NCBI GenBank assembly: GCA_902780235.1
Contig: CACZEL010000004.1
Coordinates: forward strand, 9,402 to 73,401
DNA: 64,000 nt
DNA from: an uncultured Bacteroidales bacterium
GTDB lineage: Bacteria > Bacteroidota > Bacteroidia > Bacteroidales > Paludibacteraceae
Reading direction: 5' to 3'
Part shown: positions 4,919 through 63,927 of the stretch, piece by piece
How positions within the stretch are numbered: the first letter of the stretch is position 1
Layout: each line of letters opens with the position of its first letter
Position numbers and translations under genes: made by a program
Notes under the pieces: model-generated
What the model was told of the DNA's origin: nothing
Database searches by the model: none
What the model saw: only the letters and a program-made list of their open reading frames with translations

Positions 4919-4952
4919 TCAGTTGAAAGTTGAAAGTTTAGAGTTTAGAGGT
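4919..4952. repeat. Tandem repeat block
   Basis: AGTTGAA heptamers followed by AGTTTAG heptamers. Confidence 0.85.
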
Positions 4953-9400: not shown

Positions 9401-12400
9401 GCATCACCGGCTTCAGCAGTGCTCGTATTAGCAAATTCTGGCTCCGCCACGCCGTTTTTCAATTTAGCAGGGTAGAATGTTTTCGATTGATATGTACCGA
9501 CACCTTCTACCTGATATACAGTTCTTGTTCCTGCTTCTTCTGCATCCTCATTAAAAATAAACGTACCTGCATCCTCGTTATTAGAGAAGATATTTGCTCC
9601 GCCTGCCGATGTATAAACAAATCCGGTAGCCGTTGTGAAAGTACCACGCACATTGATTGCGGCTGAAGCCGGTTTGGTTTGCTCATTGCGCACATCCGGT
9701 TTGCCCGGAGTAGTTCCACGTCCTTCCCAGCTCGGAGAGTAACGAACGGTCTTGGTGTAAGCCTTATCAGAACGCGTTTTCCACTCATCTGTTTGTTCTA
9801 CGTAGTACACCTCATTGCAATAGGCATACTTATCCCAATCATCCGCATCATAGACATAGAGGGCTCCGGTATGTTCCGCATCATTATTGTCTTTGGCTAC
9901 ACTAACGGTAGATTCTTTATCTACCTCCACTTCTGCTCCCGGAAGCAAATTGGTATTTTGTTTAAAGTCCATCGTTCCGGAAAGCAGATGAATCTTCATA
10001 TTGTTTGTTAGCGGCAAGTCAAAGTTAGCAGAATTAAGGCGTATAACTACCTTACCAAATGATGGTCCCAAATCGACATTACCCATGTCCAACACCATCG
10101 AACCTATATGCGCACCACTATTAATATCATATACCTGTATATCATTCTCTGCATCATACCATTTGCGCACCCATGTATTATCTGCATCGGCTGCAATATC
10201 CATTAAGAAGATGGCCTGATGCTGACCACTCACTCCGACTACCGCTATATCCGTGGCGGCCATAGAGATACTCAACATTGACAAACCTTCAGATACCGCA
10301 GCAGATCCGGAAAGGACAGCTCCGGGATGATACTTGACAGGTGATTCCACATTCTGGATAAAATACTGCGTGACAGGGAAAATCTTATAACCGCTATCAT
10401 CGCTTTTTACTCGATCCCATAAAGCTGCTGATACCTCATCTTGTTTTACCAATCCTGTGATACGCACAGATGTCATTGCTCCTTTCCAGTCACCCATTTG
10501 GAACATCTCTCTAACTTTGGAACCACGACGTGCATCTGTTTCACCCTTACCTGTCATGAATCCCCATGCGCGGAGTTCAGAACCGGATTGCAAAGTCATT
10601 TTACTTCCTTCTTCCATTACCAAATGACCGTAAGGCCCATAGGGTTGAGAGGTATATGCCTCATTGCTGGCAAATTGCGAGCAAGTCATTTCTATTTTAC
10701 CGAACACATCCATATTTACACCGGTAGCAAATGTCAAACGACGGAACTCCGTAGGTTGCACATAAGGTGTTGCGGCATTCACATCATTGAATATCACACG
10801 CGGAGCCGACATATTCACCTCTGTCTGTGTATCACTCATCGGCACTATAATGGTTGCATTGGCAGGGAGTGTGTAATAACCGGCAGGTAACACATAATCA
10901 TTGGTCATAAAAATAACGATACCCGCTACACCCGGGTTATTGTTCGCATACGCCAAGGCGTCTTCCAATTTTGCGTAAGATGTTGTACCGATACGGCAGA
11001 CTCCGACACCATTCGCCGTTGCAGATTCTTTCGTACCCAAGAAATGACGATATCCTTCGTTATACTCTACACCGGCAGAAATCAACAACTCGGTTTTACC
11101 TTCCGTCGAGACTCCATACTCTGTACTTGTAAAGAAACCGGATGTAAAGTCAATCGTACCATTCAACGGAGCACCAAACTTACCGCACTCAACAGTCAAT
11201 GTACCACCCACACGTTGAGCAGAATAGGTTCCACCTGAAATAGCAGCCAATTTTTTCACGGTAGCGGTACCGGCCGTCATTTTCAAACCACAAGTAGTAC
11301 CATTAATCCTACCACGATTGATGGCAGCCGTTCCTCCGTTGATCGTAATCGCCGTTTCTCCGGCAAAGGTTCCGTTGTTAACGATAAGTGTACCATTTGA
11401 AGTCAATCCTCCGGCAATAGAACCTTGAGAAGCCGTCATCGTACCGTTGTTAACTACGGCACCGGTAATGGTAGCACCGTTCTGCTCCGCTACTGCTCCA
11501 TTGGCAATAGATAGCGAAGCAAAAGTTCCGCCATTGAGTATGAGGTTACCTCCGGTTAGGGATAAAGCGCCTCCGTTTCCGCCAAATTGGCTGAATGCGA
11601 TCGTTACCTGACCACCGGAAACCAAAATGCCATTAACCGTATTACCATTCAAATCGAGTGTAATAATCTTGTCGGAGAAGGAAAGTCCTTCGCTTACCGT
11701 CGTGTTGAGCTTCAAAATCGGATTGGTATAACCACTTACATCTACCGCTAATAATTCAGCCAATGTGGTCAGCTCTGTTTCCATCGGAGTATTGCCATCA
11801 AACAAGTAAGCCTCTGCCGGATTCGGATCCAAAGCGTTCACGTTTAATGACACACCTACATTGATAGAGTTCTCGCCTGCTATCTTGAGCGTCATCGTAG
11901 TGTTTTTAACACCATACTCCACATTGGCAGGCACCGTATAGGTAACCGGAATCGTCAATCTCGTTCTTTGCGCTGAAGGCACTGCTCCCGGTGCAGAGAT
12001 AAGTTCACGATTTGCCAAGGCGGTAGCCAGATCATAAGACCAATCAGAGGGATCATTGGAGAATGTAAAGGTAGCAAAATCAGACGCATCTAAAGCTGAC
12101 GCATCTCCTATCACATCCACCGTAACATTAATCGTTACAGTATTTCCCGCCTCAGCCTCCACATTGGCACCTGATGCACTCGCATTGTCAAATGTGTATT
12201 TGGAAAAAAGAGCATTTAAAACGTTAGGTGCAGCACTAACTGTCTGTATCAATTCGTAAAGATTGTATCCATCTGCCTCGTCATCACCGGTAACTGTTTT
12301 CGTATGAGCGCTATTAGGAAGCACCCTATAACAAGGACTCTTCTCGGGAGAATAGATAGCGCATTGGGTGCCGGCACACACGCTCTCATCAGGATAGGGA

Positions 12401-13068: not shown

Positions 13069-13410
13069 TTAGAATATCGATTCTATAATTTTATCTACTA
13101 TTTCATTGAAATATTGTTCCTTAATCGTTCCTATTCGGCGCATTACATCGCGCTCCACATATCCGGCAATAATCTGACATTTCACGCGACTTGGCTTTGA
13201 GAATGTAAAACCATCAACCATATAATCAGACAACTCATACGCATATTGCGGATTAAGCAACCGATTGGATGTGATAAGCACCAAATACATCAAGCCAAAT
13301 TCATCTTCTTGCAAATCATCGTTTGACACAATGATAGCCGGATGCACTTTGAAAGTACCATCCGCAAATTGGAAATTGACTTCTACGATATCTCTTTGAT
13401 GGTATTTCAT
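13069..13410 (-). CDS. MazF/PemK-like toxin (type II TA)
   Basis: RDIVEVNF.F.DG..KVHPAIIVSND...VLITSN...KPSRVKCQII..V fits the PemK SH3-like fold pattern. ATG 13410 overlaps the upstream stop as ATGA. Confidence 0.65.
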   Translation of the reverse strand: MKYHQRDIVEVNFQFADGTFKVHPAIIVSNDDLQEDEFGLMYLVLITSNRLLNPQYAYELSDYMVDGFTFSKPSRVKCQIIAGYVERDVMRRIGTIKEQYFNEIVDKIIESIF

Positions 13411-13616
13411 ACGCAACGAGCAATAATATCTGACATACTCCGTTTAGAGTGTTCCATAAACGCTTGCGTCAACTCACGCTCCTCACGAATTTCCACCTGA
13501 GAAGGGACCTGAGATTCCATAGCGACTTGCGTAAACAAACCGGTCGCCATCAATGCCGCCATCTTGCGACGAGCAAGAGCACTGCTCTGATCGTATTGTA
13601 ATGTTACCGTACACAT
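13407..13616 (-). CDS. Putative cognate antitoxin (69 aa)
   Basis: Small ORF translationally coupled (ATGA) to the PemK-like gene. Family not recognised. Confidence 0.5.
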   Translation of the reverse strand: MCTVTLQYDQSSALARRKMAALMATGLFTQVAMESQVPSQVEIREERELTQAFMEHSKRSMSDIIARCV

Positions 13617-15200: not shown

Positions 15201-15320
15201 TTAGCTGTTAGCCGTTAGCTGTTAGCAATTTGCCGTTAGCCGTTAGCTATTAGCCTAAAAAGCCAATAGCCAATAGCCAATAGCTAAATGCCAATAGCCA
15301 ATAGTTAAAAGCCCAAAGCC
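15201..15320. repeat. Polarity-switching heptamer block (GCTGTTA family)
   Basis: TTAGCTGTTAGCCGTTAGC.. changes at about 15256 to ..GCCAATAGCCAATAGCC.. . It ends 8 nt before the adk ATG. Confidence 0.9.
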
Positions 15321-15328
15321 AAAATATA

Positions 15329-15958: not shown

Positions 15959-17131
15959 ATGACTAATTTTATCGACTACGTCAAGATCTATTGCCGCTCG
16001 GGAAAGGGTGGCGCAGGATGTATGCACCTTCATCGCGCGAAGTACCTGCCGAAAGGCGGACCGGACGGCGGTGACGGCGGTAAAGGCGGGTCGATTATCC
16101 TGCGCGGAAACCGTAACCTCTGGACGCTGCTGCATCTGAAGTATCAGAAACATATCATGGCCACGGACGGAGGCAAAGGTGGTCAGAGTCGTTCGTTCGG
16201 TAAGGACGGCGAGGATAAGATCATCGAGGTTCCGTGCGGCACGGTCGTTTACGACGGCGAGACGGGTGAGTTCATCTGCGAGGTCAAGGAGCATAACGAG
16301 CAGGTGGTGCTGCTCAAAGGTGGTCGTGGAGGCTTAGGCAACTGGCATTTCCGTACCGCCACCAATCAGGCACCGCGTTATGCCCAACCCGGCGAACCGG
16401 CGCAGGAGCGCACCGTCATCATGCAGCTCAAAGTGCTGGCCGATGTCGGTCTGGTCGGTTTCCCGAATGCAGGTAAGAGTACGCTCTTGAGCGTCGTTTC
16501 TGCCGCCAAACCGGAGATCGCCGATTATCCGTTCACCACCCTTACCCCGCAACTCGGCATCGTCTCGTACCGCGACGGACGGTCGTTCTGCATGGCCGAT
16601 ATCCCCGGTATCATCGAGGGTGCCAGCGAAGGACGAGGTCTGGGTTTACGATTCTTGCGACATATCGAGCGCAACGCCGTGCTGCTGTTCATGGTGCCCG
16701 TCACAAGCGACGATATCGTCAAGGAATACAAGATCCTGCTTAACGAATTGGAGCAATACAACCCTGAGTTGCTCACCAAAGCACGTATCTTAGCCATCAC
16801 GAAAATCGATGCGCTCGATGAGAAAGAACTCAAGAAAAAGAAAGCCTCCAAGAAACTGCAGAAACTGGATCTGCCGGTGGTTTTCATCTCGTCGGTAGCC
16901 GGCGAAGGTATCGACGAACTCAAAGATGCGCTGTGGGTTGAACTGAACAAAGAGCAGAACCAAGTCATCGAGATCAGCCATGCGCCGATTGACGTCCGAA
17001 TCAATGAGGAAATGAGCGCTTCGCTCAATGATGAAATGATGGTTGAAGACGAAGAAGGCACGATCTATCTCAACGAGGTAGAAGAAGAATGGGATCTCGA
17101 TAAGTACAAAGGTATTGGTTGGGATGAGTGA
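15959..17131 (+). CDS. obg: GTPase Obg/CgtA
   Basis: Gly-rich Obg fold ([12 protein letters not shown]) followed by G-domain motifs GFPNAGKST and DIPG. Confidence 0.95.
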
Positions 17132-17166
17132 ATTGGCTGTTAGCTGTTGGCTGTTAGCTGTTAGCT
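17132..17166. repeat. Heptamer block, left flank of four-helix-bundle gene A
   Basis: ATTGGCTGTTAGCTGTTGGCTGTTAGCTGTTAGC, starting right after the obg stop. Confidence 0.9.
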
Positions 17167-17179
17167 TATTTATTAGGGG

Positions 17180-17545
17180 ATGAGAGATTTTAGAAAATAT
17201 CGAATTTGGCAAGATGCTATATCTATTACCAATGATATATATAGTATAACAGATTCATTTCCCAAAAATGAAACATATGGATTGTCTAATCAACTGCAAC
17301 GAGCTGCTGTTTCTATAGCCTCCAATATTGCTGAAGGTGCTTCTCGTGAATCTGCAGTTGAATTTGCTCATTTTTTAGAAATCGCTATTGGATCGGCTTT
17401 TGAGGTTGAGACTCAATTGACAATTGCATTCCAACGACACTATTTATCATTGGAATCATTTCAAAAAATAATATCTTCTTTGCAAGAAGAAGAGAAAGGA
17501 ATCAACACCTTTATTCAGACATTAAAGCCAAAAGCTAATAGCTAA
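17180..17545 (+). CDS. Four-helix-bundle protein, 23S rRNA-intervening-sequence / Avd family (copy A)
   Basis: ..YGLSNQLQRAAVSIASNIAEGASRES..EFAHFLEIAIGSAFEVETQL matches the family signature. The C-terminal ..KANS* is encoded by the repeat. Confidence 0.85.
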   Translation: MRDFRKYRIWQDAISITNDIYSITDSFPKNETYGLSNQLQRAAVSIASNIAEGASRESAVEFAHFLEIAIGSAFEVETQLTIAFQRHYLSLESFQKIISSLQEEEKGINTFIQTLKPKANS

Positions 17546-17554
17546 TAGCTAAAG
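17531..17554. repeat. Heptamer block, right flank of gene A, opposite polarity
   Basis: AAAGCTAATAGCTAATAGCTAAAG. It contains the stop and ends 5 nt before the ClC ATG. Confidence 0.9.
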
Positions 17555-17558
17555 TAAA

Positions 17559-19370
17559 ATGCGAAGCACCTTTTATGATAGAATGATCGAGTGGCGGGAA
17601 CGTCATATCAGCGAGAAGCATTTGGTGCTCTTGTTGTCATTCTTCGTAGGTGCTTTCTCTGCCGCAGCGGCAGCGCTGCTGAAATCCTTCATCCACCTTA
17701 TCCAATGGTTCGTAGAGAACCATCTGATCGCCGGCGGCCATACATGGTGGTACCTCATCACGCCGGTCATCGGTATCACGCTGGCGGCCTTGTTCGTCAA
17801 ATACGTGGTGCGGGACGATATATCGCACGGTATCACGAAAATCCTCTACGCTATCTCTCAGCGCAAATCGATCATCAAAGCGCATAACATGTGGTCTTCT
17901 GTGGTCGGTTCGGGTCTGACGATCGGTTTTGGTGGATCAGTCGGAGCCGAGGCACCTATCGTGCTGACGGGTGCAGCCATCGGTTCGAACCTCGCCAAGG
18001 CTTTCCGCTTGGATCAGAAGACGATGATGCTGATGATCGGTTGCGGTGCAGCCGGCGCGATAGGCGGTATCTTCAAAGCCCCTATAGCCGGTTTGGTCTT
18101 CACGCTCGAAGTGCTGATGATGGACCTGACGATGACGTCTGTGGCTCCGCTGCTGATCTCATCCGTCACGGCCACCGCTATCTCGTATATCCTCACCGGC
18201 ACCGATCCGATGTTCCCCTTGGATGTTGAAGAGCCGTTCTTAGTCCAACGTATCCCGTGGTACCTGATATTAGGCGCAGTATGCGGTCTGGTGAGCCTTT
18301 ATTTCACCCGCGGCATGAACCGTCTGGAGCAGTGGATGAAGCATAACATCCGCTCGATAGGCATGAAGATCCTTGTGGGCGGCGTGACGCTGAGTCTGCT
18401 CATTTTCCTTTTCCCTCCTTTGTATGGTGAGGGATATGATGTGATACGCCAGTTGATCAACGGCGACAGCATCAGTGCGCTTAAGAATAGCCCGATGGAG
18501 ACCTATATGCTCTCATCGGACAACGCGATCCTGCATTCGAAATTCAACACGCAGCTGGTGATCGTGATCTATTTCGCGGCGATCCTGCTGCTGAAGATCG
18601 TAGCCAGCGTAGCCACCAACGGCGGAGGCGGCGTCGGAGGTATCTTCGCTCCTTCGCTTTTCATGGGTGCTATCGTCGGTTTCGTGACCGCGCGTATCAT
18701 GAACATGTCGGGTCTGCTGGTGCCGGAGACCAATTTCGCCTTGGTAGGCATGGCAGGTCTGATGTCCGGTGTGATGCATGCGCCGCTGACAGGTATCTTC
18801 CTCATCGCCGAACTGACGGGCGGTTATCACCTGTTCATGCCGCTGATGATCGTGAGCGTCATCTCGTACCTGACGATCATGCTGTTCGAACCCCACTCTT
18901 TGTACGCCATGCGTCTGGCGCAGAAAGGTGAGTTACTCACGCATAACAAAGACCGGAACGTGCTGACGCTGCTCAAGATGGACAGCGTCTTGGAGACTGA
19001 TTTCATCACGATCTTCCCCGAGATGACCTTGGGCGAATTGGTGAAGGTGATCAGCGAAAGCAAACGCAATATTTTCCCCGTCATAGACCAGAAAGGGCAT
19101 CTAAAAGGGATCTTGCTCTTGGACGAAGTACGCAATATCATGTTCCAACCGCGTCTGTACAAACGCTTCACGGTAGGACAACTGATGACCTCCCCTGCCG
19201 CGGTCTTGCGGTTCGACCTACCGATGGAAAAAGTGATGGAGATCTTCGAAGACACGGGTGCCTGGAACCTGCCGGTAGTCGATCAAGACCGACGCTATCT
19301 GGGCTTCGTCTCCAAATCCAAGATCTTCAATTCCTACCGCCACGTGCTGGTTCACTTCTCCGAAGAATAA
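17559..19370 (+). CDS. ClC family chloride channel/antiporter with C-terminal CBS pair
   Basis: GGSVGAEAPIV and GGIFAPSLFMGA ClC motifs, about 10 TM segments, and a CBS-like tail. Confidence 0.9.
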   Translation: MRSTFYDRMIEWRERHISEKHLVLLLSFFVGAFSAAAAALLKSFIHLIQWFVENHLIAGGHTWWYLITPVIGITLAALFVKYVVRDDISHGITKILYAISQRKSIIKAHNMWSSVVGSGLTIGFGGSVGAEAPIVLTGAAIGSNLAKAFRLDQKTMMLMIGCGAAGAIGGIFKAPIAGLVFTLEVLMMDLTMTSVAPLLISSVTATAISYILTGTDPMFPLDVEEPFLVQRIPWYLILGAVCGLVSLYFTRGMNRLEQWMKHNIRSIGMKILVGGVTLSLLIFLFPPLYGEGYDVIRQLINGDSISALKNSPMETYMLSSDNAILHSKFNTQLVIVIYFAAILLLKIVASVATNGGGGVGGIFAPSLFMGAIVGFVTARIMNMSGLLVPETNFALVGMAGLMSGVMHAPLTGIFLIAELTGGYHLFMPLMIVSVISYLTIMLFEPHSLYAMRLAQKGELLTHNKDRNVLTLLKMDSVLETDFITIFPEMTLGELVKVISESKRNIFPVIDQKGHLKGILLLDEVRNIMFQPRLYKRFTVGQLMTSPAAVLRFDLPMEKVMEIFEDTGAWNLPVVDQDRRYLGFVSKSKIFNSYRHVLVHFSEE

Positions 19371-19372
19371 AC

Positions 19373-19403
19373 AAAAAATCCACTCGATTGAGTGGATTTT
19401 TTT
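19373..19403 (+). terminator. Rho-independent terminator after the ClC gene
   Basis: AAAAAATCCACTC-GATT-GAGTGGATTTTTTT. Confidence 0.8.
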
Positions 19404-19404
19404 G

Positions 19405-19475
19405 TAGCGGGACCCAGGATTGAAATAATCGTGCCCTCGTGGCTAAGAACTTGGGACCTCATGATTCATAATCAT
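19405..19475 (-). pseudogene. tRNA-Met 3'-half remnant
   Basis: The 23 nt TTGTAGCGGGACCCAGGATTGAA are identical to the 3' end of the tRNA at 19510-19583. A 25-nt insertion follows, then an anticodon-arm copy whose loop triplet is inverted. There is no 5' acceptor or D arm. Confidence 0.6.
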
Positions 19476-19477
19476 AC

Positions 19478-19509
19478 GAAAGAAACCACCCTTGCGAGTG
19501 GTTTCTTTG
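19478..19509 (-). terminator. Hairpin immediately 3' of tRNA-Met
   Basis: AAGAAACCAC-loop-GTGGTTTCTT. Confidence 0.5.
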
Positions 19510-19583
19510 TAGCGGGACCCAGGATTGAACTGGGGACCTCATGATTATGAATCATGCGCTCTAACCAGCTGAGCTATCCCGCC
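19510..19583 (-). tRNA. tRNA-Met (anticodon CAU); a lysidine-modified tRNA-Ile2 cannot be excluded
   Basis: The reverse complement is GGCGGGATAGCTCAGCTGGTTAGAGCGCATGATTCATAATCATGAGGTCCCCAGTTCAATCCTGGGTCCCGCTA. It folds as a cloverleaf by hand with loop TTCATAA. The anticodon stem lacks the initiator 3xGC. No CCA is encoded. Confidence 0.85.
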
Positions 19584-19587
19584 GCGC

Positions 19588-19665
19588 TTGGCTATTAGCT
19601 GTTAGCTTTTAGCCGTTAGCAGTTTGCTTTCTGCCAATAGCCAATAGCCAATGGCTAACAGCTAT
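19588..19665. repeat. Polarity-switching heptamer block inside the tRNA-Met leader
   Basis: TTGGCTATTAGCTGTTAGCTTTTAGCCGTTAGC ... GCCAATAGCCAATAGCCAATGGCTAACAGCTAT. The outer 11 nt are perfectly complementary. Confidence 0.9.
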
Positions 19666-19681
19666 TTGTCAAAAGCGGGTG

Positions 19682-19713
19682 CAAAAGTACTGCTTTTTTC
19701 TGACATACGCAAA
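19682..19713 (-). promoter_or_regulatory. Promoter for tRNA-Met
   Basis: The minus strand reads TTTG-N20-TACTTTTG, about 90 nt upstream of the mature 5' end. Confidence 0.65.
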
Positions 19714-19757
19714 TTTTTTGCCATTTTTTTTGCATTTTTAGGCAAAAAAGTGCAAAA

Positions 19758-20705: not shown

Positions 20706-22681
20706 ATAGGGTCAATATCAATAATAATTTTCACGTTTTTATTCGATGGAACCGACCAAACTTGATCAATCGCTTCCTGCAATCGCCGTTTGGCTTCAGC
20801 CATATTGGCAGTCGATTCAATACGCAGGGTCAGTTCGCGGATATAATAGGCTTGCACGCGTTCCACGGATGGAATAATAACCGCAGAGATGCGCCTACCG
20901 AAGATCTGGGACAGGTAAGCCTGCAACTGCGTCGCCGTGGCATGTGCCAGCGGCTGTTTGGAATGACGCATCTGGATACGAATCATCCGATGAAATGGGG
21001 GATAATGGAACATTTGGCGTTCCGCTAATTGCTGGTTATAGAGCGCGATATAATCATGTTCCCGCACCATCTGCAGCACCTTATTGGAGGGATCAAAAGT
21101 CTGAATCCACACTTCCCCTTTGGTACCTTTGCGTCCTGCCCGACCTGCTACCTGCTCCAGCATCTGGAACGCCCGTTCGTACGCCCGGAAATCGGGTTGG
21201 TTAAAGAGCGGATCGGCATTGAGCACCGCTACCAAGCGTACATCATCAAAATGTAAACCCTTGGTCACCATCTGCGTACCGACTAAGATGTCGCATTCAT
21301 GGTTGGCAAAGGCATTGATGATATCCTGATACGCGGACTTATTCCGCGTGGTATCCAGATCCATACGCAGCACCCGTGCCTCGGGGAAGAGCGTCTGTAT
21401 CTCATCTTCGATGCGTTCGGTACCGATACCGATGGCTTTGAGTTCACCGCCACATTGCGGACAAACGGCTGGTACGGCAGTATGATAACCGCAGTAATGA
21501 CACCGCATCTCCCGCGGATGCAGATGGAGCGTCATCGGCACATCACATTGGACGCAACGAGGCGGTTCGCCGCATTGCATGCACTGGATCTGCGGCGCAT
21601 AGCCGCGTCGGTTCTGAAAGAGAATAACCTGTTTATGATCCGCCAGACATTGCCGTATACGCTCTACGAGCGGATCGGAGAAATGCCCATACATCTCCTT
21701 GCGCTCATACTGCCGCTTAAGGTCAATCAGTTGGATGTCAGGTAACTCGACCCCACCGAAACGTTCGGTAAGGGAAACCAATCCATACACCCCTTTCTGC
21801 GCCAGGTAATACGACTCGATGGAAGGCGTAGCCGTGCCCAAGAGCACTTTGGCCTTATGCAGTTGCGCCAACATGATCGCTGCCGCACGGGCATGATAAC
21901 GAGGATTCGGTTCTGCCTGCTTATAACTGGGTTCATGCTCTTCATCCACGATAACAAGACCGAGATCTTGTATTGGCAAAAAGATTGCACTACGGGCGCC
22001 AATTACTACGTAATTAGTTGAAAGTTGAAAGTTCTGCCGATCTGCTGACGCCGTATGGAAAGTTGAAAGTTTTTTATATCTCACCTCCCGTTCGGCATCG
22101 GTGAAACGGCTGTGATAGACGATGAGCCGATCGCCGAAGATGGTCTGTAGACGAGAGGTGAGTTGGGTAGTCAAAGCGATCTCCGGCACCAGATACAGCA
22201 CGTTCTTGCCCGCCTCCAACTGCGCCTGAATCAGATGAATATATATATCCGTTTTGCCTCCGGACGTCACCCCATGCAGCAGCACGATATCCTTACCCGA
22301 ACGCCAAAAAGTCTCGATTTCATCGGCACTTTTCGCTTGTGCCGGCGATAAGTCATGCATAGGTTCGATAGGACCCGTATAGGGTGCAAGCGCCTTACGT
22401 GCCCGTTTGGGCGGGTCAGTGAGTCGTTTATCCAAACCACCGGGCAAAGCCGCAGCCATCACTTCACCCAAAGAGCACATGTAATAACGGCTCATCCATT
22501 GCCATAAAGCCAACTGCTCCCGCGTAACGACCGGCGCCGTATCGACTACAGACAGGATCGGGCGTATCTTATCGGCAAAAGCCGGTTCGATGGGTTCTGT
22601 ATGTTCGCGCAAAACCACCCCTCGCAGTTCTTTCTTGAGTAGCGGCACGATGACGCGTGTACCCGGCGCAGGTATAGACAA
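20702..22681 (-). CDS. priA: Primosomal protein N' (replication restart helicase PriA)
   Basis: LHGVTSGGKT (Walker A), IVDEEH, a Cys4 cluster (CVQCDVP..CHYCGY..CPQCG), QMVTKGLHF and GRAGR. The conserved N-terminus continues upstream of TTG 22681 to about 22750 with no canonical start codon (see findings). Confidence 0.9.
   Translation of the reverse strand: MSIPAPGTRVIVPLLKKELRGVVLREHTEPIEPAFADKIRPILSVVDTAPVVTREQLALWQWMSRYYMCSLGEVMAAALPGGLDKRLTDPPKRARKALAPYTGPIEPMHDLSPAQAKSADEIETFWRSGKDIVLLHGVTSGGKTDIYIHLIQAQLEAGKNVLYLVPEIALTTQLTSRLQTIFGDRLIVYHSRFTDAEREVRYKKLSTFHTASADRQNFQLSTNYVVIGARSAIFLPIQDLGLVIVDEEHEPSYKQAEPNPRYHARAAAIMLAQLHKAKVLLGTATPSIESYYLAQKGVYGLVSLTERFGGVELPDIQLIDLKRQYERKEMYGHFSDPLVERIRQCLADHKQVILFQNRRGYAPQIQCMQCGEPPRCVQCDVPMTLHLHPREMRCHYCGYHTAVPAVCPQCGGELKAIGIGTERIEDEIQTLFPEARVLRMDLDTTRNKSAYQDIINAFANHECDILVGTQMVTKGLHFDDVRLVAVLNADPLFNQPDFRAYERAFQMLEQVAGRAGRKGTKGEVWIQTFDPSNKVLQMVREHDYIALYNQQLAERQMFHYPPFHRMIRIQMRHSKQPLAHATATQLQAYLSQIFGRRISAVIIPSVERVQAYYIRELTLRIESTANMAEAKRRLQEAIDQVWSVPSNKNVKIIIDIDPI
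22014..22075. repeat. Repeat-core-repeat insertion inside priA, in frame
   Basis: AGTTGAAAGTTGAAAGTT - CTGCCGATCTGCTGACGCCGTATG - GAAAGTTGAAAGTTTTTT. It encodes ..LSTFHTASADRQNFQLSTNY.. . Confidence 0.85.
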
Positions 22682-30518: not shown

Positions 30519-30564
30519 AGTTGAAAGGTGAAAGTTGAAAGTTGAAAGAAGGTGAAAGGTAAAA
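30519..30564. repeat. Heptamer block in the topA leader
   Basis: AGTTGAAAGGTGAAAGTTGAAAGTTGAAAGAAGGTGAAAGGTAAAA. Confidence 0.9.
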
Positions 30565-38032: not shown

Positions 38033-39961
38033 TCATTTGACCCAACGCATGCAGAGCGGCGGAATCGTGACCGCCATCAGCAGAACGATGGCCATGCCGA
38101 TGAGGGTGACCGCACCCAACGAATGCATGGCGGGATGCACTGCGAAGATAAGGATTCCAATACCAATCAACATAATTAGCGCCGACAAAAGGATCGATTG
38201 CCGATATTGCGGCAGGATCTGTTTGCCGGTTCTTCGTTCGTACAGAAGCCCTTCCACAATGAAGATGGTATAGTCGTCTCCTTGCCCGAAAATGAAGGTA
38301 GCAAGGATGATATTGACTATGTTAAACTGCAAGTGGCAGAGTTGCATGATAGCCAGTATCCAAACCCAACTCAGCGCCATCGGCAGGAAAGCGATGAGCG
38401 CCAAAGAGAAACGCTTGAACGCCAGCCACAGGAAGACGAAGACGATGAGCGAGCAGACGAGACCGATATAATCGAACTCCGCGCTGAGACGCTCGGCAAC
38501 CTTGGACATGAGGGAGCTGACGCTATTGGCTATTGGCTCTTGGCTATTAGCTCTTAGTTTCTCATAGAACGGTTCGAAAGCATCTGGACGAAAACCGACG
38601 GCTTCGGCTTCTTCGCGGATGAGGGATATGAGCTCTTGGCTGTTGGCTATTGCAGGTCTGACCTGGCTATTGGCTATGGGCTCTTGACTATTGGCTATTG
38701 GCTCGAAGAGGGCCATGTCGGCGCGTTGCTCGTCGGTCATGAAGTTGATATGCGTCAAGTTGGCATCAAACCGGTCTTGCGGACGAAACCAGAGATACAA
38801 TCCTCCGATAAGAGTAAGGGCGAGAATAGTCCATTGACTGACAGCTATTAGCTTTTGGCTCTTGGCTATTGGCTTGATTTTGATCTCTCTTATCGGCGTG
38901 GGTTCGGCGGACATGAGATGAGGCAGAACGAAGACGCAGAAGAGGATCGTTCCGACCAACATGGCAGCCGCAAAGATACCGAGGTGACGGAGGGCGGTGG
39001 CATGCATGGGGATAAGCGCCATGAACGCACCGACGGTCGTGATATTGCCTACGATAAGGGGTGAGAGTACTTCATCCAATGTTTGCCGCACGGAGGTCGT
39101 ATAGCGCTGATGTACAAGCAGATGCAGCGGGTAATTGACGGCGATACCGATCAGGACACTACCGATACCCAGCACAACGGCGGAGACGGTAGGCGTGACG
39201 ATATGTAAGACGGCCATACCCATTAACCAACCGACAGAAACCGACAAGAGGATGAGCCACCAGTCTCTGCGACGCGGGAAAGCGTAAGCAAGAAGCAAGA
39301 TGATCAATACCGCCGAAAGAGAGATACAAAGGAGCGTGTCGGTCTTGATTCGACGTGCGTTACCTACGGCAATCACAGGACCTCCCGTCCAGCGTATCAG
39401 CAGATTCGGATAAAGAAGCGCCACCTCGTTCGTGATAGCCGTCAGCGAATCCACGAGAGCCGCGTTTTGCTTGGTTTCCGTACTGCCATATGGAGAATCG
39501 ATATACGCAAAGCTTTTATTAGTTGAAAGTTGAAAGTTGAAAGTTGAAAGGTCGATTAAACCCAAGGGATCTTGTTGGATGAGGGGGGCTAAGGCTGAAC
39601 CGCCGGGCGTAGAGAGGATGGCTTTATCGCGTAAGAGGGCGGCATGAACTGCTTCGCGCGTAAGGAGAGAATCGGGAATGTTGAAAGGTGAAAGGTGAAA
39701 GGTGAAAGGTGAAAGGTCGGATAAGGTGAAAGTGGATAGTGGATAGTGGATAGTGGAAAGACGATCTTCGATCGTATAGAGGGCATCTTCCCGTTCGTAC
39801 TCCTCTTCACCCTCGATGATCAGCACGATGCGCGCAGCCGATTGCTGGGCTTGCAGGCTGTCGATGGCTTGGCGCTCCTCCGCAGTGATCGGCAGAAAAT
39901 CCATGATGTCTTCGTCGTAACGCAAAGTAGCAGCCAAAGCGATGAGGATGCTCATCACCAC
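38033..39961 (-). CDS. MMPL/RND-like exporter (ApeM-like)
   Basis: Two clusters of TM helices. The conserved N-terminus (..ILLHIYDFFASHRAWLWIG..) lies upstream of GTG 39961 with no canonical start codon. Five repeat insertions are present. Confidence 0.7.
   Translation of the reverse strand: MVMSILIALAATLRYDEDIMDFLPITAEERQAIDSLQAQQSAARIVLIIEGEEEYEREDALYTIEDRLSTIHYPLSTFTLSDLSPFTFHLSPFNIPDSLLTREAVHAALLRDKAILSTPGGSALAPLIQQDPLGLIDLSTFNFQLSTNKSFAYIDSPYGSTETKQNAALVDSLTAITNEVALLYPNLLIRWTGGPVIAVGNARRIKTDTLLCISLSAVLIILLLAYAFPRRRDWWLILLSVSVGWLMGMAVLHIVTPTVSAVVLGIGSVLIGIAVNYPLHLLVHQRYTTSVRQTLDEVLSPLIVGNITTVGAFMALIPMHATALRHLGIFAAAMLVGTILFCVFVLPHLMSAEPTPIREIKIKPIAKSQKLIAVSQWTILALTLIGGLYLWFRPQDRFDANLTHINFMTDEQRADMALFEPIANSQEPIANSQVRPAIANSQELISLIREEAEAVGFRPDAFEPFYEKLRANSQEPIANSVSSLMSKVAERLSAEFDYIGLVCSLIVFVFLWLAFKRFSLALIAFLPMALSWVWILAIMQLCHLQFNIVNIILATFIFGQGDDYTIFIVEGLLYERRTGKQILPQYRQSILLSALIMLIGIGILIFAVHPAMHSLGAVTLIGMAIVLLMAVTIPPLCMRWVK
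38522..38557. repeat. In-frame heptamer block in the exporter
   Basis: GCTATTGGCTATTGGCTCTTGGCTATTAGCTCTTAG encodes ..RANSQEPIANS.. . Confidence 0.9.
38631..38705. repeat. In-frame repeat-core-repeat block in the exporter
   Basis: ..CTCTTGGCTGTTGGCTATTGC-AGGTCTGACCT-GGCTATTGGCTATGGGCTCTTGACTATTGGCTATTGGCTC encodes EPIANSQEPIANSQVRPAIANSQEL. Confidence 0.9.
38841..38875. repeat. In-frame heptamer block in the exporter
   Basis: ACAGCTATTAGCTTTTGGCTCTTGGCTATTGGCTT encodes ..KPIAKSQKLIAVS.. . Confidence 0.85.
39521..39552. repeat. In-frame heptamer block in the exporter
   Basis: AGTTGAA x4 encodes ..LSTFNFQLSTN.. . Confidence 0.9.
39680..39760. repeat. In-frame compound block in the exporter
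   Basis: GAAAGGT x5 followed by GGATAGT x3 encodes ..STIHYPLSTFTLSDLSPFTFHLSPFN.. . Confidence 0.9.
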
Positions 39962-44638: not shown

Positions 44639-44960
44639 TTACAGAATTGAAAGTTGAAAGGTGAAAGTTGAAAGATTTATCCCGTTCTCCGTTTTCGATA
44701 CAAAGGGTTACTTCCATGTCCGGCGTGATCGGTTGACGGAATTTCAAGTTACGGATTGCGTTGAAGCAAACCGTACTCCCGACAAATACACCTGCCAATT
44801 CTTCGGCTATCTGCACAAGAACAGCACCGGGTACAACCGGATGACCGGGAAAATGACCGGCAAAAATAGGGTGCGAAGGATTGAAGCGAATGACAAAAGT
44901 GCTTTGCTCTTTCGACTTTTGACTTTCGACGATATCATATAAACTATTTAACAGTGACAT
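44589..44960 (-). CDS. FabZ/FabA-like hotdog dehydratase
   Basis: ..HPIFAGHFPGHPVVPGA.. . The C-terminus reads through the block at 44646-44675 and overlaps the next gene by 50 nt. Confidence 0.7.
   Translation of the reverse strand: MSLLNSLYDIVESQKSKEQSTFVIRFNPSHPIFAGHFPGHPVVPGAVLVQIAEELAGVFVGSTVCFNAIRNLKFRQPITPDMEVTLCIENGERDKSFNFHLSTFNSVNASFIVTYMCPDTDLQ
44646..44675. repeat. Heptamer block at the dehydratase/GT2 junction
   Basis: ATTGAAAGTTGAAAGGTGAAAGTTGAAAGA is translated as ..SFNFHLSTFN.. . Confidence 0.9.
44907..44930. repeat. In-frame block near the dehydratase N-terminus
   Basis: CTCTTTCGACTTTTGACTTTCGAC is the complement of the GTCGAAAGTCAAAAG seen in porX. It encodes ..VESQKSKEQ.. 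. Confidence 0.8.
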
Positions 44961-51927: not shown

Positions 51928-53135
51928 CGTAAAACAATGGCGCTGTTCGTGCCGCCAAAACCGAAACTGTTACTTAAGACAGTCTGGAGCGGCGTCTCGA
52001 TCGTTTGGGTAGCCAGACGCAGATCGGCTGCACAGGGATCGACATGCTCGAGGTTGATGTTGGGCGCCACAAATCCGTGCTGCATCATCAGGATGCTATA
52101 CACCGCCTCACTGGCGCCGGCCATCCAGCACTCATGTCCGGTCATGGACTTGGTGCTGCTGACCCATGCCTGCTTGCCGCCGAAAAGGCGTGCGAGGGCA
52201 ATTGCCTCTTCTTCATCCCCTTGTTTGGTAGAAGTAGCATGGGCATTGACATAATCGATCTGATCGGCAGTGACACCGGCATCCGCCAACGCACGCTGCA
52301 TGGCGATGAACGAACCTTCGCTGCTCGGTTGCGAGATACCGCCTCCGTTGCTGGAGAATCCGTATCCGCATACCTCCGCAAGGATCGTTGCTCCACGAGC
52401 GACAGCGTGGTCGTAGTCTTCGAGCACCAAGGCTGCCGCACCGCCGCTGGGTACTAATCCGTTACGGTCGAGATCGAACGGCCTGCTGGCTTTGGTGGGT
52501 TCATCGACCCGCCCGGAGAACGTGCCTAAGGCATCAAAAGCAGCCATCGAGTACGGGTTCACCTCCTGCGCACCGCCCACCAGCACCATCTCTTGCAGCC
52601 CCTGGTGAATGAACATTGCCCCTAAACCGATCGAGTGGCTACCGCTCGCACAGGCAGCACTGACCGAGAAATTGATACCCCGCAGATGGAAGATCGTACT
52701 CAGGTTCATGTTCACCGTCGAGTTCATCGACTGGAAGATCAAACCGCTACCCAACAAAGCCGTGTCATGCTTCTCCAGCATCGTCTCGTGCATCTCCACC
52801 GTCGCTTGCGCCGTACTGTCGTTACCGAAGAGGATACCTACCTCGTGGTCCAACAGATACTGCTCCTCAATGCCGGCTTGCTCAAACGCTTCGCGGGCTG
52901 CCATATAGGCATACATCGCTTCCTGCGACATACCCGTTCGCAGACGACGATGCAAGAGGTTCTTCAGGTCCGGCGTCTCCACCATACCTGTCAGCGGACT
53001 GCGAAAACCGTACTCCTTGCGTGCCTCGTCATATCCGATACCGCTGCGTCCCATACGCAACGATTGAGTCACTTCCTCTTTATTCCGGCCGATACACGAC
53101 CAGATACCCATGCCTGTTACTACTACCCTTTTCAC
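51906..53135 (-). CDS. Beta-ketoacyl-ACP synthase II-like (FabF family)
   Basis: GTG start MKRVVVTGMGIW, ..SAACASGSH.., ..NAHATSTKQGD.., ..GHECWMAG.., ..FGFGGTN.. . Confidence 0.9.
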   Translation of the reverse strand: MKRVVVTGMGIWSCIGRNKEEVTQSLRMGRSGIGYDEARKEYGFRSPLTGMVETPDLKNLLHRRLRTGMSQEAMYAYMAAREAFEQAGIEEQYLLDHEVGILFGNDSTAQATVEMHETMLEKHDTALLGSGLIFQSMNSTVNMNLSTIFHLRGINFSVSAACASGSHSIGLGAMFIHQGLQEMVLVGGAQEVNPYSMAAFDALGTFSGRVDEPTKASRPFDLDRNGLVPSGGAAALVLEDYDHAVARGATILAEVCGYGFSSNGGGISQPSSEGSFIAMQRALADAGVTADQIDYVNAHATSTKQGDEEEAIALARLFGGKQAWVSSTKSMTGHECWMAGASEAVYSILMMQHGFVAPNINLEHVDPCAADLRLATQTIETPLQTVLSNSFGFGGTNSAIVLRKLTANG

Positions 53136-53165
53136 CTTTCAACTTTCACCTTTCAACTTTCAATT
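53128..53165. repeat. Junction block
   Basis: CTTTTCACCTTTCAACTTTCACCTTTCAACTTTCAATT. Confidence 0.9.
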
Positions 53166-56930: not shown

Positions 56931-56931
56931 T

Positions 56932-56975
56932 TTCTTATTTTCGCATTTTTTCATTTTCTCATTTTCTCATTTAAG
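56932..56975. repeat. Left flank block of four-helix-bundle gene B
   Basis: ..CGCATTTTTTCATTTTCTCATTTTCTCATTTAAG. The inner 14 nt, CATTTTCTCATTTA (56960-56973), are a perfect inverted match to 57356-57369. Confidence 0.9.
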
Positions 56976-57353: not shown

Positions 57354-57394
57354 ACTAAATGAGAAAATGCGAAAATGAGTAAATGAATAAATGA
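57354..57394. repeat. Right flank block of gene B (inverted)
   Basis: ACTAAATGAGAAAATGCGAAAATGAGTAAATGAATAAATGA. Confidence 0.9.
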
Positions 57395-58393: not shown

Positions 58394-58414
58394 AATGTTT
58401 AAAATTAAATTTTT

Positions 58415-58528
58415 ATGTTTGATGTTGTTTGATATTGTTTGACATTGTTTGACATTGTTTGATGTCGTTTGAGGTTGTTTGATCTTGTTAACGATCTCAA
58501 ACCTTCAAACTATCTCAAACCTTCAAAC
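58415..58528. repeat. Empty polarity-switching block (GTTTGA then TCAAAC)
   Basis: (N4)GTTTGA 10-mers x7, a switch at TTGTTAACGATC, then CTCAAACCTTCAAAC.. . The 28-nt core at 58486-58513 is identical to 63473-63500. Confidence 0.9.
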
Positions 58529-60854: not shown

Positions 60855-61832
60855 ATGAAAAAGAATCTTTTCGTTCGTCTTATCACATGGCTCGCCATCA
60901 TGGCGGTGCTGACCTTGATAGCGATGGGGGCTTGGATGCTCCTTAGCGGGAACAGTCAGAGTACAGTCAGTCTCAAATGGCTGCAGTTCGTTCAGACGGT
61001 TGCTACTTTTTTAATCCCGCCTGTGCTCTGCGCTTGGCTGTGGGACGCCGATCGACGTCCCTTCGCGTGGCTTAAGATGGACAAGCGCGTCGATGGGTCG
61101 CTCTTTGCTTTGGCGGTCGTCCTCATGGTCTGCGCCGTACCGGCTATCAACCTCTTGGCGGATCTCAACAGCCGTATCACGCTGCCGGAGAGCATGGCGG
61201 CATGGGAGGCGAAGATGAAATCGATGGAAGCCGCAGCGGCAGCGCTCACCGAACGCTTCCTGCAAGTCGATAATCTCGGCGGACTCATCATCAACCTCGG
61301 TCTGATGGCCCTCCTTCCCGCCCTCTCCGAAGAACTCTCCTTCCGCGGCACCCTGCAGCAGCTAATAGCCAATAGCCAAGAGCTAAGAGCCAATAGCCAA
61401 CAGCTAAGAGCCAATAGCCAACAGTTAAGAGCCAAGAGCCAAGAGCTAATAGCCAATAGCCAACAGCTAATAGCCAATAGCCATATGGCTATATGGATCA
61501 CTGCTATTATATTTTCAGCGATACATATGCAATTTTACGGTTTCATCCCGCGTATGCTCATGGGCGCGATGTTCGGCTATGTCTTCGTCTGGACGGGTAG
61601 CCTGTGGGTGCCGATCGTCATGCATTTCACCAACAACGCACTCGCGGTTGTGGTTTACTACATAACAGCCAATAGCCAAGAGCTAATAGCCAATAGCCAA
61701 CAGCTAACAGCCAATAACCAAAATATCGCCGACACGATAGGTGCCGGCGATACATGGTGGTTAGGCGTCATCAGCCTGATCCTTACATCTCTGGGTCTAC
61801 TAATATTCTACCGCAGAACTCACAAGGAATAA
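60855..61832 (+). CDS. CPBP (CAAX/Abi) family intramembrane glutamic endopeptidase
   Basis: Motif 1 SEELSFRG, motif 2 FSAIH, motif 3 HFTNN. Two long repeat insertions lie in loops. Confidence 0.8.
   Translation: MKKNLFVRLITWLAIMAVLTLIAMGAWMLLSGNSQSTVSLKWLQFVQTVATFLIPPVLCAWLWDADRRPFAWLKMDKRVDGSLFALAVVLMVCAVPAINLLADLNSRITLPESMAAWEAKMKSMEAAAAALTERFLQVDNLGGLIINLGLMALLPALSEELSFRGTLQQLIANSQELRANSQQLRANSQQLRAKSQELIANSQQLIANSHMAIWITAIIFSAIHMQFYGFIPRMLMGAMFGYVFVWTGSLWVPIVMHFTNNALAVVVYYITANSQELIANSQQLTANNQNIADTIGAGDTWWLGVISLILTSLGLLIFYRRTHKE
61358..61496. repeat. In-frame 21-nt-period block between CPBP motifs 1 and 2
   Basis: Encodes IANSQELRANSQQLRANSQQLRAKSQELIANSQQLIANSH. Each 21-mer is three degenerate CCAATAG-type heptamers with the TAG removed. 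Confidence 0.95.
61664..61721. repeat. In-frame 21-nt-period block after CPBP motif 3
   Basis: Encodes ITANSQELIANSQQLTANNQN. Confidence 0.95.
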
Positions 61833-62530: not shown

Positions 62531-62660
62531 TTTGTTTGACATTGTTGGATGTTGTTTGAGGTTGTTTGAGATCGTTTGAGATTGTTTGAGATTGTTTGAG
62601 ATCGTTTAAACCTTCAAACCTTCAAACTTCAAACTACCTCAAACCCTCAAACTTCAAACC
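62531..62660. repeat. Empty polarity-switching block (GTTTGA then TCAAAC)
   Basis: TTTGTTTGACATTGTTGGATGTTGTTTGAGGTTGTTTGAGATCGTTTGAG... switches at about 62607 to AAACCTTCAAACCTTCAAACTTCAAAC... . It contains the nif3 stop. Confidence 0.9.
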
Positions 62661-63409: not shown

Positions 63410-63416
63410 TTAGTCT

Positions 63417-63541
63417 ACTGTTTGATATCGTTTGATATTGTTTGATGCTGCGCGTTTGATGTTGTTTGACGTTGTTAACGATCTCAAACCTTCAAACTAC
63501 CTCAAACAATCTCAAACTTCAAACTTTCAAACCCTCAAACC
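63417..63541. repeat. Polarity-switching block left of four-helix-bundle gene C
   Basis: GTTTGAT units, the TTGTTAACGATC switch, then CTCAAAC units running into the stop of gene C. Confidence 0.9.
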
Positions 63542-63927
63542 TTTTTAAACTTATTTCCAGTTATCTCTGCTTGTTTGAGATACTTTATCATATTAAATAT
63601 TTTTGACCCGATAGTTTTGGAGTCCTGAATTAAGGCTTTGCATTTGTCGTCTAATATATAACCCGCATCCAATGCTCTATATAATTGACTTCGCACCTCA
63701 CCACAAGAACCTTTTGAGACATACAAGAATTGTATAAATTCTTTTGTTCCCTCTCTCTCAAAACCTTCCGCAATATTGTCCATTATTGACCCCGCCGCAG
63801 CTCTTATTTGAGAGCAGAAACGTGTATCGCTTCTAAAATCTCGTGTTCTGGTAATTTGGTAGATTTCCTTACTAAAGGTACGAGCTAATTGCCATATTTC
63901 CAAATCTTCGAAATTACTAATAGTCAT
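63535..63927 (-). CDS. Four-helix-bundle protein, 23S rRNA-IVS / Avd family (copy C)
   Basis: ..LEIWQLARTFSKEIY..FCSQIRAAAGSIMDNIAEGFEREGTKEFIQFLYVSKGSCGEVRSQL.. . Confidence 0.85.
   Translation of the reverse strand: MTISNFEDLEIWQLARTFSKEIYQITRTRDFRSDTRFCSQIRAAAGSIMDNIAEGFEREGTKEFIQFLYVSKGSCGEVRSQLYRALDAGYILDDKCKALIQDSKTIGSKIFNMIKYLKQAEITGNKFKKV

Follow-up and report, generated by a model that had tools for sequence, protein, structure and literature searches.

Repeat-armed four-helix-bundle genes at gene junctions of a rumen Paludibacteraceae bacterium: probable intervening-sequence-type cassettes outside rRNA

The stretch of DNA analysed here (64,000 nucleotides of contig CACZEL010000004.1, referred to throughout as the window) comes from an uncultured rumen Paludibacteraceae bacterium. 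It includes three genes, A, B and C, for four-helix-bundle (4HB) proteins of the PF05635 (23S_rRNA_IVP) / TIGR02436 (four helix bundle protein) family, to which the proteins of 23S rRNA intervening sequences (IVSs) also belong. Each gene is part of an AT-rich, promoter-less cassette of ~0.45-0.6 kb in which the 4HB open reading frame (ORF) is bracketed by inverted arrays of 7-10 nt tandem repeats, and each protein subfamily has its own repeat type. We consider it probable that these loci are IVS-type cassettes located outside rRNA, at the stop/start junctions of co-directional housekeeping genes, and that they are tolerated there by way of the RNase III mechanism proposed below. Dispersal of the cognate repeats, in the manner of repetitive extragenic palindromic (REP) sequences and their REP-associated tyrosine transposases (RAYTs), possibly takes place in addition.

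Gene and arms as one inserted unit

The features of the three cassettes, in window coordinates and in the direction of their transcription, are as follows.

17130-17564 (+), whole insert of cassette A, 435 bp relative to the empty obg/ClC junction
17133-17168 (+), 5' arm of cassette A, (GCTGTTR) x ~4.4 at 17133-17166, found by Tandem Repeats Finder (TRF); pairs with the 3' arm in the minimum free energy (MFE) fold and in the duplex test
17180-17545 (+), 4HB ORF A, 121 aa, GC 0.33
17527-17554 (+), 3' arm of cassette A, GCYAAWA units; runs over the stop codon of ORF A and the codons just before it
57354-57394 (-), 5' arm of cassette B, sense TCATTTA / CATTTTC units, immediately 3' of the fba stop codon
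56976-57353 (-), 4HB ORF B, 125 aa, GC 0.37
56931-56975 (-), 3' arm of cassette B, sense GAAAATG / AAATGAG units; reaches the likely CoA-transferase start at 56930
63928-64000 (-), 5' array of cassette C, sense GTTTGA units, next to ORF C
63535-63927 (-), 4HB ORF C, 130 aa, GC 0.36; its stop codon TGA lies within a GGTTTGA repeat unit
63416-63534 (-), complete hairpin 3' of ORF C; sense (GTTTGA)n, a GTTAAC centre at 63474-63479, then (TCAAAC)n

Empty and filled sites were compared at the obg-ClC junction (cassette A), and identical blocks were delimited for B and A. An exact search with the NIF3 neighbour of C, aimed at empty C junctions, gave no record. The obg-ClC junction is without a 4HB gene in 77 related species with adk-obg-ClC synteny, in which obg and ClC range from overlapping genes to genes separated by a spacer of ~190 bp, and no further 4HB gene was found in the obg loci of relatives (80 loci, 1.5 Mb). 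In the closest relative (locus L001), whose Obg and ClC are 98.5% identical to those of the window in protein and ~87% in DNA, obg and ClC overlap. Its empty site reads GGGATGAGT^AGCACC and the window insert sits exactly at this position, where obg receives its stop codon from it (TGA, 17129-17131) and ClC a new start (ATGCGA, 17559-17564).

For cassette B, a block of ~490 bp (56919 to ~57410) is 100% identical in the window, in L091 (metagenome-assembled genome, MAG, RGIG3280) and in L092. It comprises both arms and the ORF and extends by a few bases into the gene on each side; identity in the flanking genes themselves is 86-88%, with mismatches starting from 4-13 nt outside the cassette. Cassette A is likewise 99.5-99.8% identical in nine contigs of other samples whose flanks are 89-98% identical. 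An apparent second genomic context for an identical A protein (L087-L090) proved to be a spurious ORF in ClC, and all of these loci represent the same obg-ClC site. Since the arms lie within the insertion at A and within the 100%-identical block at B, they belong to the unit: judged from these comparisons, the 4HB ORF and its arms are one inserted unit.

The history of the junctions was followed in further carriers. Three homologues 82-87% identical to A (P0005, P0010 and P0019) all share with it both the obg-ClC junction and the arm type; obg-ClC carriers have from 3 to 17 units per arm between lineages, and ClC starts with ATGCGM in every one of them. Carriers of A-type cassettes are not mutual nearest relatives: the window groups with the empty L001, L108 with the empty L072 and L114 with the empty L016. 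L072 and L108 are 98.9% identical in Obg and ClC protein, yet their obg-ClC junctions are wholly different, with a 559-bp A-type cassette in L108 and a 48-bp AAATGA-type array in L072, which in spite of having no cassette still carries an A-type array in its adk-obg spacer. At the fba junction, contigs whose Fba protein is identical to that of the window carry a B allele 78% identical in amino acids, with B-type arms. The distribution of same-junction homologues is patchy and incongruent with the flanks. Cassette divergence is thus at times far lower and at times far higher than that of the flanks, a pattern that speaks for lateral replacement having taken place repeatedly at a fixed site, and against simple vertical descent. 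As far as can be judged from these alleles, cassettes are exchanged laterally between diverged genomes at the same junction.

A preliminary description of this DNA, made from its letters without database searches, had seen here a cassette-like module of divergent IVS-family genes in imperfect inverted repeat arms. The insertion relative to L001, the 77 species without a 4HB gene at the orthologous junction and the identical B block, arms included in each case, bear out this core reading. The same description had held that ordinary vertical genes would be indicated by the same genes at the same junctions of distant relatives without repeats; the homologues found at these junctions are always armed.

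Over longer times the cassette is, to judge from more distant homologues, found at new junctions while keeping its arm type. A-type proteins occur between a metallophosphatase gene and mazG (72% identity) and between an epimerase gene and a cytidylyltransferase gene (62%), with GCYRTTR / GCYAAYR arm arrays. B-type proteins occur between SIS and GatZ genes (78%) and, in Prevotella, between methylmalonyl-CoA epimerase and carboxyltransferase genes (72%), with YCATTTR / CGATTTT arm arrays. Genes of this kind are present in many Bacteroides, Prevotella and Flavobacteria, one example being the mce-mmdA junction of L221-type Prevotella. In all A lineages (6/6) and all B lineages (4/4) the arm motif fits the protein subfamily, the motifs having been defined after viewing examples. 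Similarity between proteins and similarity between arm 6-mers were also compared in a Mantel test, which is free of that circularity and gave rho 0.35 over 77 loci and rho 0.13 within the C family; neither value was reached in any of 2000 permutations.

Protein family, arm structure and generality

The three ORFs are members of the PF05635/TIGR02436 family, with profile scores all over the curated cut-offs (PF05635: A 121.6, B 56.8 and C 109.6 bits, cut-off 33.8; TIGR02436: A 119.8, B 85.4 and C 108.6 bits, cut-off 24). No fourth 4HB copy was found in the window when all six-frame ORFs were searched with A, B and C as queries. A matches C only at E ~1e-13 (phmmer) and B has no phmmer match to A or C, so that the three are not recent duplicates of one another. 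In the structure database A resembles 2GSC (Xanthomonas XCC0516, E 2.4e-20) and 2RLD (E 2e-6), both with five chains per PDB entry and both compared with A by sequence only. Xanthomonas S23p is called a homopentamer in PMC4990558, at second hand from Lin 2006.

The neighbours of A are obg and ClC, those of B are fba and an acetyl-CoA hydrolase/transferase gene (neighbour families by Pfam), and those of C are a DUF5606 gene and NIF3; all are co-directional with the respective 4HB gene. GC content is 33-37% in the three ORFs, 53-54% in their neighbours and 50-54% in the background. Purifying selection on ORF A is strong, with dN/dS of 0.04-0.08 among alleles (0.04-0.07 for ORF A of the window compared with alleles of the orthologous site), the same as for obg and ClC, and we take the 4HB protein to be functional. 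None of A, B and C matches a PADLOC defence model. Viral contigs gave no close relative of A or B in a search by exact 8-residue words, which is insensitive for this reason. Rfam detects only two tRNAs in the window, with no 23S rRNA helix around A, B or C and, at the gathering thresholds, no known RNA family over the cassette arms. Another sequence of low GC content was noted on the - strand: a pair of overlapping small ORFs (13069-13410 and 13407-13616), the first with 37% GC, as low as the 4HB genes.

The arms of each cassette are complementary. In cassette A there is a single-base difference between GCTAATAGC and the reverse complement of GCTGTTAGC, giving a G-U pair on the + strand. In cassette B, CATTTTCTCATTTA at 56960-56973 is repeated as its exact reverse complement at 57356-57369, a 14-bp inverted repeat. 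The 5' array of cassette C ends 4 nt past the end of the window, at the DUF5606 stop codon, as read in L098 (3924-4000); the hairpin 3' of ORF C includes a GCGCAGC mini-hairpin within its TCAAAC part and its GTTTGA arm on the + strand is 63416-63473. Arm-to-arm duplex energies are -37.0 (A), -29.7 (B) and -46.9 kcal/mol (C), values reached by 0/200 shuffles in each case (z -5 to -7). In sense-strand MFE folds the arms of A and of B close a long-range stem around the ORF, so that both have complementary termini enclosing the gene; in C the arms are complementary and the ORF lies within the 5' arm.

Much of the preliminary description was recovered in this way: three IVS-family genes between housekeeping genes at the coordinates listed above, too different from each other for a recent duplication; repeat units to the left of A (GCTGTTR) and their complement to the right (GCYAAWA); a perfect 14-bp inverted repeat around B; and C among TCAAAC arrays, present on either side of it, with a GTTTGA arm further left. 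The in silico folding of the arms that it had suggested gave the stems of A and B, and the duplex energies of all three cassettes surpass the shuffled controls. Its picture of an ORF in the loop of a long imperfect inverted repeat stands for A and B, on the MFE fold and the duplex test, and had to be given up for C.

Small hairpins within the arms were seen repeatedly. C/A-rich arm units often hold GCGAAGC or GCGCAGC, a C-GNA-G mini-hairpin (window 63447-63456; L164 2076-2415), which is also present in units of L015 (~11225-11300) and L075 (~11290-11350). The left arm of L075 has small C(TTCG)G hairpins between its units.

We addressed the generality of this arrangement by scanning metagenomes with C, which gave 80 loci of 48-64% identity from rumen, gut, sediment, freshwater and soil, 66 of them analysable. 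The resulting statistics are based on crude ORF calls and on related loci that are not independent, with genes of the same contigs as controls. An array of at least 3 units is present within 130 nt on either side in 50/66 4HB genes and in 18/71 control genes (p = 3e-9), and arrays are present on both sides in 31/66 and 4/71, respectively (p = 1e-8). Upstream and downstream sequences are complementary at z <= -3 for 57% of the 4HB genes compared to 8% of the controls (Mann-Whitney p = 1e-11). The preliminary description had held that it would be refuted if most copies in the genome lacked flanking repeat arms; in this metagenomic sample flanking arrays are the common situation. An arm 6-mer is present four or more times in 63/66 loci, ORF GC content is under that of the flanks in 65/66 (median difference -8 points) and both neighbours are co-directional in 38/50. 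C-family arms have a common GTTYRA / TYRAAC core and are otherwise locus-specific, and the stop codon is often found within the first downstream unit. The layouts observed are arm-ORF-arm, hairpin-ORF-arm, arm-ORF-hairpin and hairpin-ORF-hairpin, with arrays of up to several hundred bp. The family itself is large: one homologue search returned 7,849 of 8,000 scored candidates.

At one locus (L164, 1826-3728) a C-family 4HB gene has nested hairpins on either side, made up of arrays of GTTCAA units and of TTGAACGCGAAGC units, 60-450 bp each; the array lengths indicate that arms can reach several times the length of the gene.

Dispersed repeats, mechanism and rival explanations

The window is rich in short-period arrays, with 55 of them (0.86 per kb) compared to 0.29 per kb in 78 related loci, and period 7 is dominant (229/465 arrays in 1.5 Mb). 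Most arrays are not associated with a 4HB gene. They are located in 5' leaders, at many operon junctions and in some cases in frame within coding sequences, and repeat blocks by themselves are therefore not specific to 4HB genes. Beyond the cassette arms there are 13 A-type arrays in the window and 5 in 1.43 Mb of relatives' loci, and, with arms counted, 10 C-type arrays in the window and 6 in the relatives; arm-type arrays are thus 20-60 times denser in the window. An A-type array is present in the HU-adk or adk-obg spacer in 4/4 carrier lineages and in 4/77 non-carriers (Fisher p = 4e-5). In the metagenomic loci, arm motifs located at least 400 bp from the gene amount to 5.3 compared to 2.6 per kb (p = 5e-4), with a weak composition control. 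Within the available sequence, namely the window, the relatives' loci (~21 kb each) and the metagenomic loci, we conclude that arrays of the cassette arm type are dispersed elsewhere in carrier genomes. Solo arrays of the window, which have no ORF, include the following.

15204-15322 (+), solo A-type hairpin array in the HU-adk spacer (GCYGTTA ... GCCAATA); missing from this spacer in L001 and L060
15900-15945 (+), solo A-type array in the adk-obg spacer
19591-19660 (+), solo A-type hairpin array
58413-58524 (-), solo C-type hairpin array between fba and the gene adjoining it (GTTTGA / GTTAAC / TCAAAC)
62550-62648 (-), solo C-type hairpin array with a GTTTAAAC centre

A-type heptamer arrays also occur in frame in two ORFs. 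In an Rce1/CPBP-like ORF (60855-61832) the arrays at 61359-61483 and 61663-61721 encode ANSQQLRANSQQL runs, and in a 640-aa ORF with hydrophobic stretches (38033-39955) those at 38522-38874 and 39682-39757 encode PIANSQEPIANSQ runs. A period of 21 nt keeps the reading frame, and A-type repeats thus invade the coding sequence of two membrane-protein genes. Next to the A-type hairpin array at 19591-19660, a tRNA gene (19510-19583, - strand) is accompanied by a partial copy of one of its ends ~100 bp away (window 19371-19757), a duplicate which may be an integration or rearrangement scar.

Other array families are found at the same kinds of sites. The obg-ClC junction of L001-L078 (~11150-11400) has a different short array in nearly every species, for example AGTTGAA, TTAACGG, AATTGAC, ATTGGTR and GTTTGA hairpins, several of them built from the local stop-codon heptamer. 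TAACTGA/ATACTGA repeats like those of Beggiatoaceae are present in L005, L048 and L076. In the co-directional intergenic regions of the window and L001-L078, the repeat unit contains a stop codon in 148/216 arrays on the sense strand and in 101/216 on the antisense strand; with a period of 7, a stop codon in the unit gives stops in all three frames. (AGTTGAA)n is located directly 5' of start codons, in the sense direction, at 30519-30548, 39521-39550, 44647-44674, 53130-53163, 4921-4938 and 22016-22033. Across the relatives AGTTGAA arrays are more frequent than those of any other family; 4HB genes with arms of this type were not seen.

In the mechanism that we propose for IVS-type cassettes, the cassette would be transcribed by read-through from the upstream gene and its arms would pair into a stem of at least 25 bp. 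RNase III would cut this stem, as in rRNA IVSs, to release the ORF RNA and uncouple the neighbouring cistrons, and insertion between genes would thereby become as harmless as insertion in rRNA helices. Read-through, pairing and cutting are proposed on the grounds of the homology of protein and architecture to the rRNA IVSs. More speculatively, a homopentameric 4HB protein might recognise its cognate repeat units: arm specificity and the co-occurrence data suggest binding between protein and repeat, and we formulate as a hypothesis that the pentamer binds its own repeat units.

Several points weigh against this explanation or against parts of it. The comparative sequences are all metagenome assemblies or MAGs. 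At cassette A there is no target-site duplication (empty GAGT^AGCACC compared with the filled site), A, B and C have no common terminal core, and no recombinase or nuclease that might move a cassette was seen. The near-identity of cassette A reaches 11-108 bp into its flanks, which homologous recombination could yield. From one carrier lineage to another, divergence is about the same in the A cassette as in obg and ClC, with dS saturated, and this equal divergence of cassette and flanks, taken alone, looks like vertical descent with losses. ORF C lies inside its 5' arm (the GTTTGA array) beside a complete hairpin, not in a loop; several relatives likewise have the ORF beside a complete hairpin or within an arm, and ~40% of C-family genes are without significant arm complementarity. 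RNase III cleavage of the arms is proposed by analogy only. Finally, the G-U versus A-C test of the arm duplexes revealed no sense-strand preference: the antisense duplex is the more stable one in 27/37 C-family cases, and 10 cassette lineages split into 4 sense and 6 antisense. A weak sense bias is present over 186 co-directional intergenic regions of the clade (60%, 1.3 kcal/mol), loci which are not independent. Lack of strand preference is as compatible with a role at the DNA level, or with the absence of any strand constraint, as it is with an RNA stem, and the C-GNA-G mini-hairpins of the arms would suit a DNA-level role too.

It is possible, if rather doubtful as a full account, that the cassettes are replicators resembling REP/RAYT systems, the 4HB protein being a trans-acting factor of its cognate repeats on DNA or ssDNA; this would be compatible with the IVS-type explanation. 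The armed gene would be the 'master copy', like a REPtron, and the solo arrays and hairpins its non-autonomous progeny, like REP doublets forming hairpins (REPINs). The gene is indeed bracketed by inverted cognate repeats, whose density in the carrier window, presence in the neighbouring spacers of carriers and distal enrichment in metagenomic loci have been described above. In-frame arrays within coding sequences look like invasion rather than adaptive design, strong purifying selection together with a stable position recalls domesticated RAYTs, and both the indifference of the arm duplexes to sense and the mini-hairpins fit a DNA-level role. However, no catalytic motif by which DNA might be cleaved or joined can be recognised in a helical bundle of 120 aa, the status of non-carrier covers only ~21 kb per relative, the composition control of the distal enrichment is weak and the obg-ClC arrays often look locally made from the stop-codon heptamer, which points to slippage. 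Heptamer arrays are, moreover, on record from lineages and contexts for which a link to a 4HB protein is not stated (PMC4679880). An unlikely alternative is an autoregulated RNA-binding regulator, in which a 4HB ring would bind tandem units in mRNA leaders and junctions in the manner of TRAP, as a host module and not a selfish one; arrays around its own ORF would be autoregulatory sites, and downstream translation or stability would be tuned. The arrays in 5' leaders and immediately 5' of start codons, the five chains of each solved relative (with the second-hand homopentamer of PMC4990558, citing Lin 2006) and the strong purifying selection are in keeping with this, and PMC4679880 had already postulated a post-transcriptional regulator for heptamers upstream of start codons. 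The regulator would explain neither why one and the same junction may be with or without a cassette nor why cassettes are identical where their flanks are diverged; low GC content and in-frame coding arrays would likewise be left unexplained, and unit number is very variable (3 to >40).

We regard it as quite improbable, and as already disfavoured by the data, that the association is incidental, with ordinary vertical small genes amid slippage-generated repeats which fill any intergenic space. Nearly all of the 465 arrays in 1.5 Mb are without a 4HB gene, many unrelated arrays occupy the obg-ClC junction of relatives, same-junction A-type alleles are as diverged as their flanks, and heptamer repeats are a known class. 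On the other hand, arrays and complementarity are specific to 4HB genes and not to their neighbours in contigs from many environments, the identical transferred block includes the arms, arm type tracks protein subfamily across junctions and genera, and the distribution is patchy and incongruent with the flanks. The idea that these genes are remnants or accessory (Avd) genes of diversity-generating retroelements (DGRs) is extremely improbable and was rejected: A has weak matches to bAvd (PF22296, 21.9 bits) and DivGenRetAVD (NF033474, 22.2 bits), far under the cut-offs of 40 and 80, respectively, B and C have none, no reverse transcriptase adjoins the genes, and the neighbours are of the housekeeping type both in the window (obg/ClC, fba/CoA-transferase, DUF5606/NIF3) and in all homologous loci.

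IVS-type cassettes outside rRNA thus seem to us the best explanation. Far more tentatively, since we think it unlikely in this general form, PF05635 proteins together with subfamily-specific arrays of 7-10 nt units might represent an unrecognised and widespread class of replicators or of RNA-processing elements, similar to REP/RAYT except that no transposase is recognisable, with the repeat-armed gene as master copy. Solo arrays and hairpins, including the heptamers of Bacteroidota, Cyanobacteria and Beggiatoaceae, would be their progeny, and rRNA IVSs would be the same element having landed in rRNA.

Significance and comparison with known systems

In our literature search the PF05635 family was found only in connection with IVSs, DGRs and bystander annotations, and no repeat-armed cassettes were described. 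The new point is that, outside rRNA, this large family has the IVS construction as its general form, behaving as a cassette exchanged laterally at operon junctions, and that repeat families dispersed in the host genome match the arm repeats. For some 30 years there has been no explanation of where rRNA IVSs and the very large 'four helix bundle protein' family come from and of their biology; IVSs would thereby become one habitat of a general cassette and not an rRNA curiosity. The cassettes provide testable candidates for the ligand of the protein, for the build-up of heptamers at gene junctions in some phyla and for the way in which a DNA insertion is tolerated in a transcription unit without splicing. 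In practical terms, the arms break metagenome assemblies and mislead start-codon calls, and the cassettes offer sharp markers with which recent gene flow in rumen Bacteroidales can be followed.

Intergenic heptamer repeats (TAACTGA) are known from Beggiatoaceae, Cyanobacteria and a small number of Bacteroidetes, among them Paludibacter, and their turnover is lineage-specific; they provide stops in all frames and lie just 5' of start codons, and no factor was assigned to them (PMC4679880). The cassette arms resemble them as short tandem heptamers located where genes adjoin and immediately 5' of start codons. PMC4679880, in contrast, reports neither cassettes with inverted arms nor a link to PF05635 genes, which its main text does not mention.

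The Avd proteins of DGRs have a fold of a related four-helix-bundle family, and A alone gives a weak match to their profiles; the scores are under the cut-offs and neither an adjoining reverse transcriptase nor a template repeat/variable repeat (TR/VR) pair accompanies the cassettes. Integron cassettes also consist of a single promoter-less ORF with an imperfect inverted-repeat site, placed in the direction of host transcription. They differ in that no integrase adjoins A, B or C and in that 4HB cassettes are single, between housekeeping genes, and not stacked, with tandem-repeat arms on both sides of the ORF. Classical insertion sequences (IS) and miniature inverted-repeat transposable elements (MITEs) differ from cassette A, whose insert ends without a target-site duplication.

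REP/RAYT systems consist of a gene for a Y1/HUH transposase flanked by inverted copies of a repeat which is dispersed intergenically; REP repeats are palindromes of 20-40 nt, and the gene mostly stays put while the repeats turn over. The 4HB loci share with them a single gene between inverted copies of a repeat whose family is dispersed in intergenic space, as well as a correspondence between each gene subfamily and its own repeat family, and a conserved gene that mostly keeps its place amid repeats that turn over. The cassette protein, unlike the transposase, is a four-helix bundle whose only Pfam matches are PF05635 and bAvd, and the cassette repeats are tandem units of 7-10 nt.

The closest comparison is with the ORF-bearing IVSs of 23S rRNA (Coxiella burnetii and Leptospira; S23p). 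Cassettes differ from these in their location, between protein-coding operon genes and not in an rRNA helix, and in their arms, which are long tandem arrays specific for each protein subfamily. Strong purifying selection acts on the cassette ORF, in contrast to the decaying ORF of Coxiella (PMC4990558), and excision by RNase III is documented for Coxiella while the cassettes are known here from their nucleotide sequence. The Coxiella IVS is 428 nt long, with a 28-bp terminal stem, and two or three tandem GACAGAT heptamers, variable between strains, precede its S23p start codon (PMC4990558). IVSs and cassettes nevertheless have proteins of the same family, PF05635, and a similar size. In both, complementary termini enclose the ORF (a stem of ~28 bp in Coxiella), tandem heptamers of variable number stand directly 5' of it (3 to 17 units in the cassette A lineages), and the element has no promoter of its own and is placed inside a host transcript (PMC4990558 for Coxiella), presumably so in the case of the cassettes.

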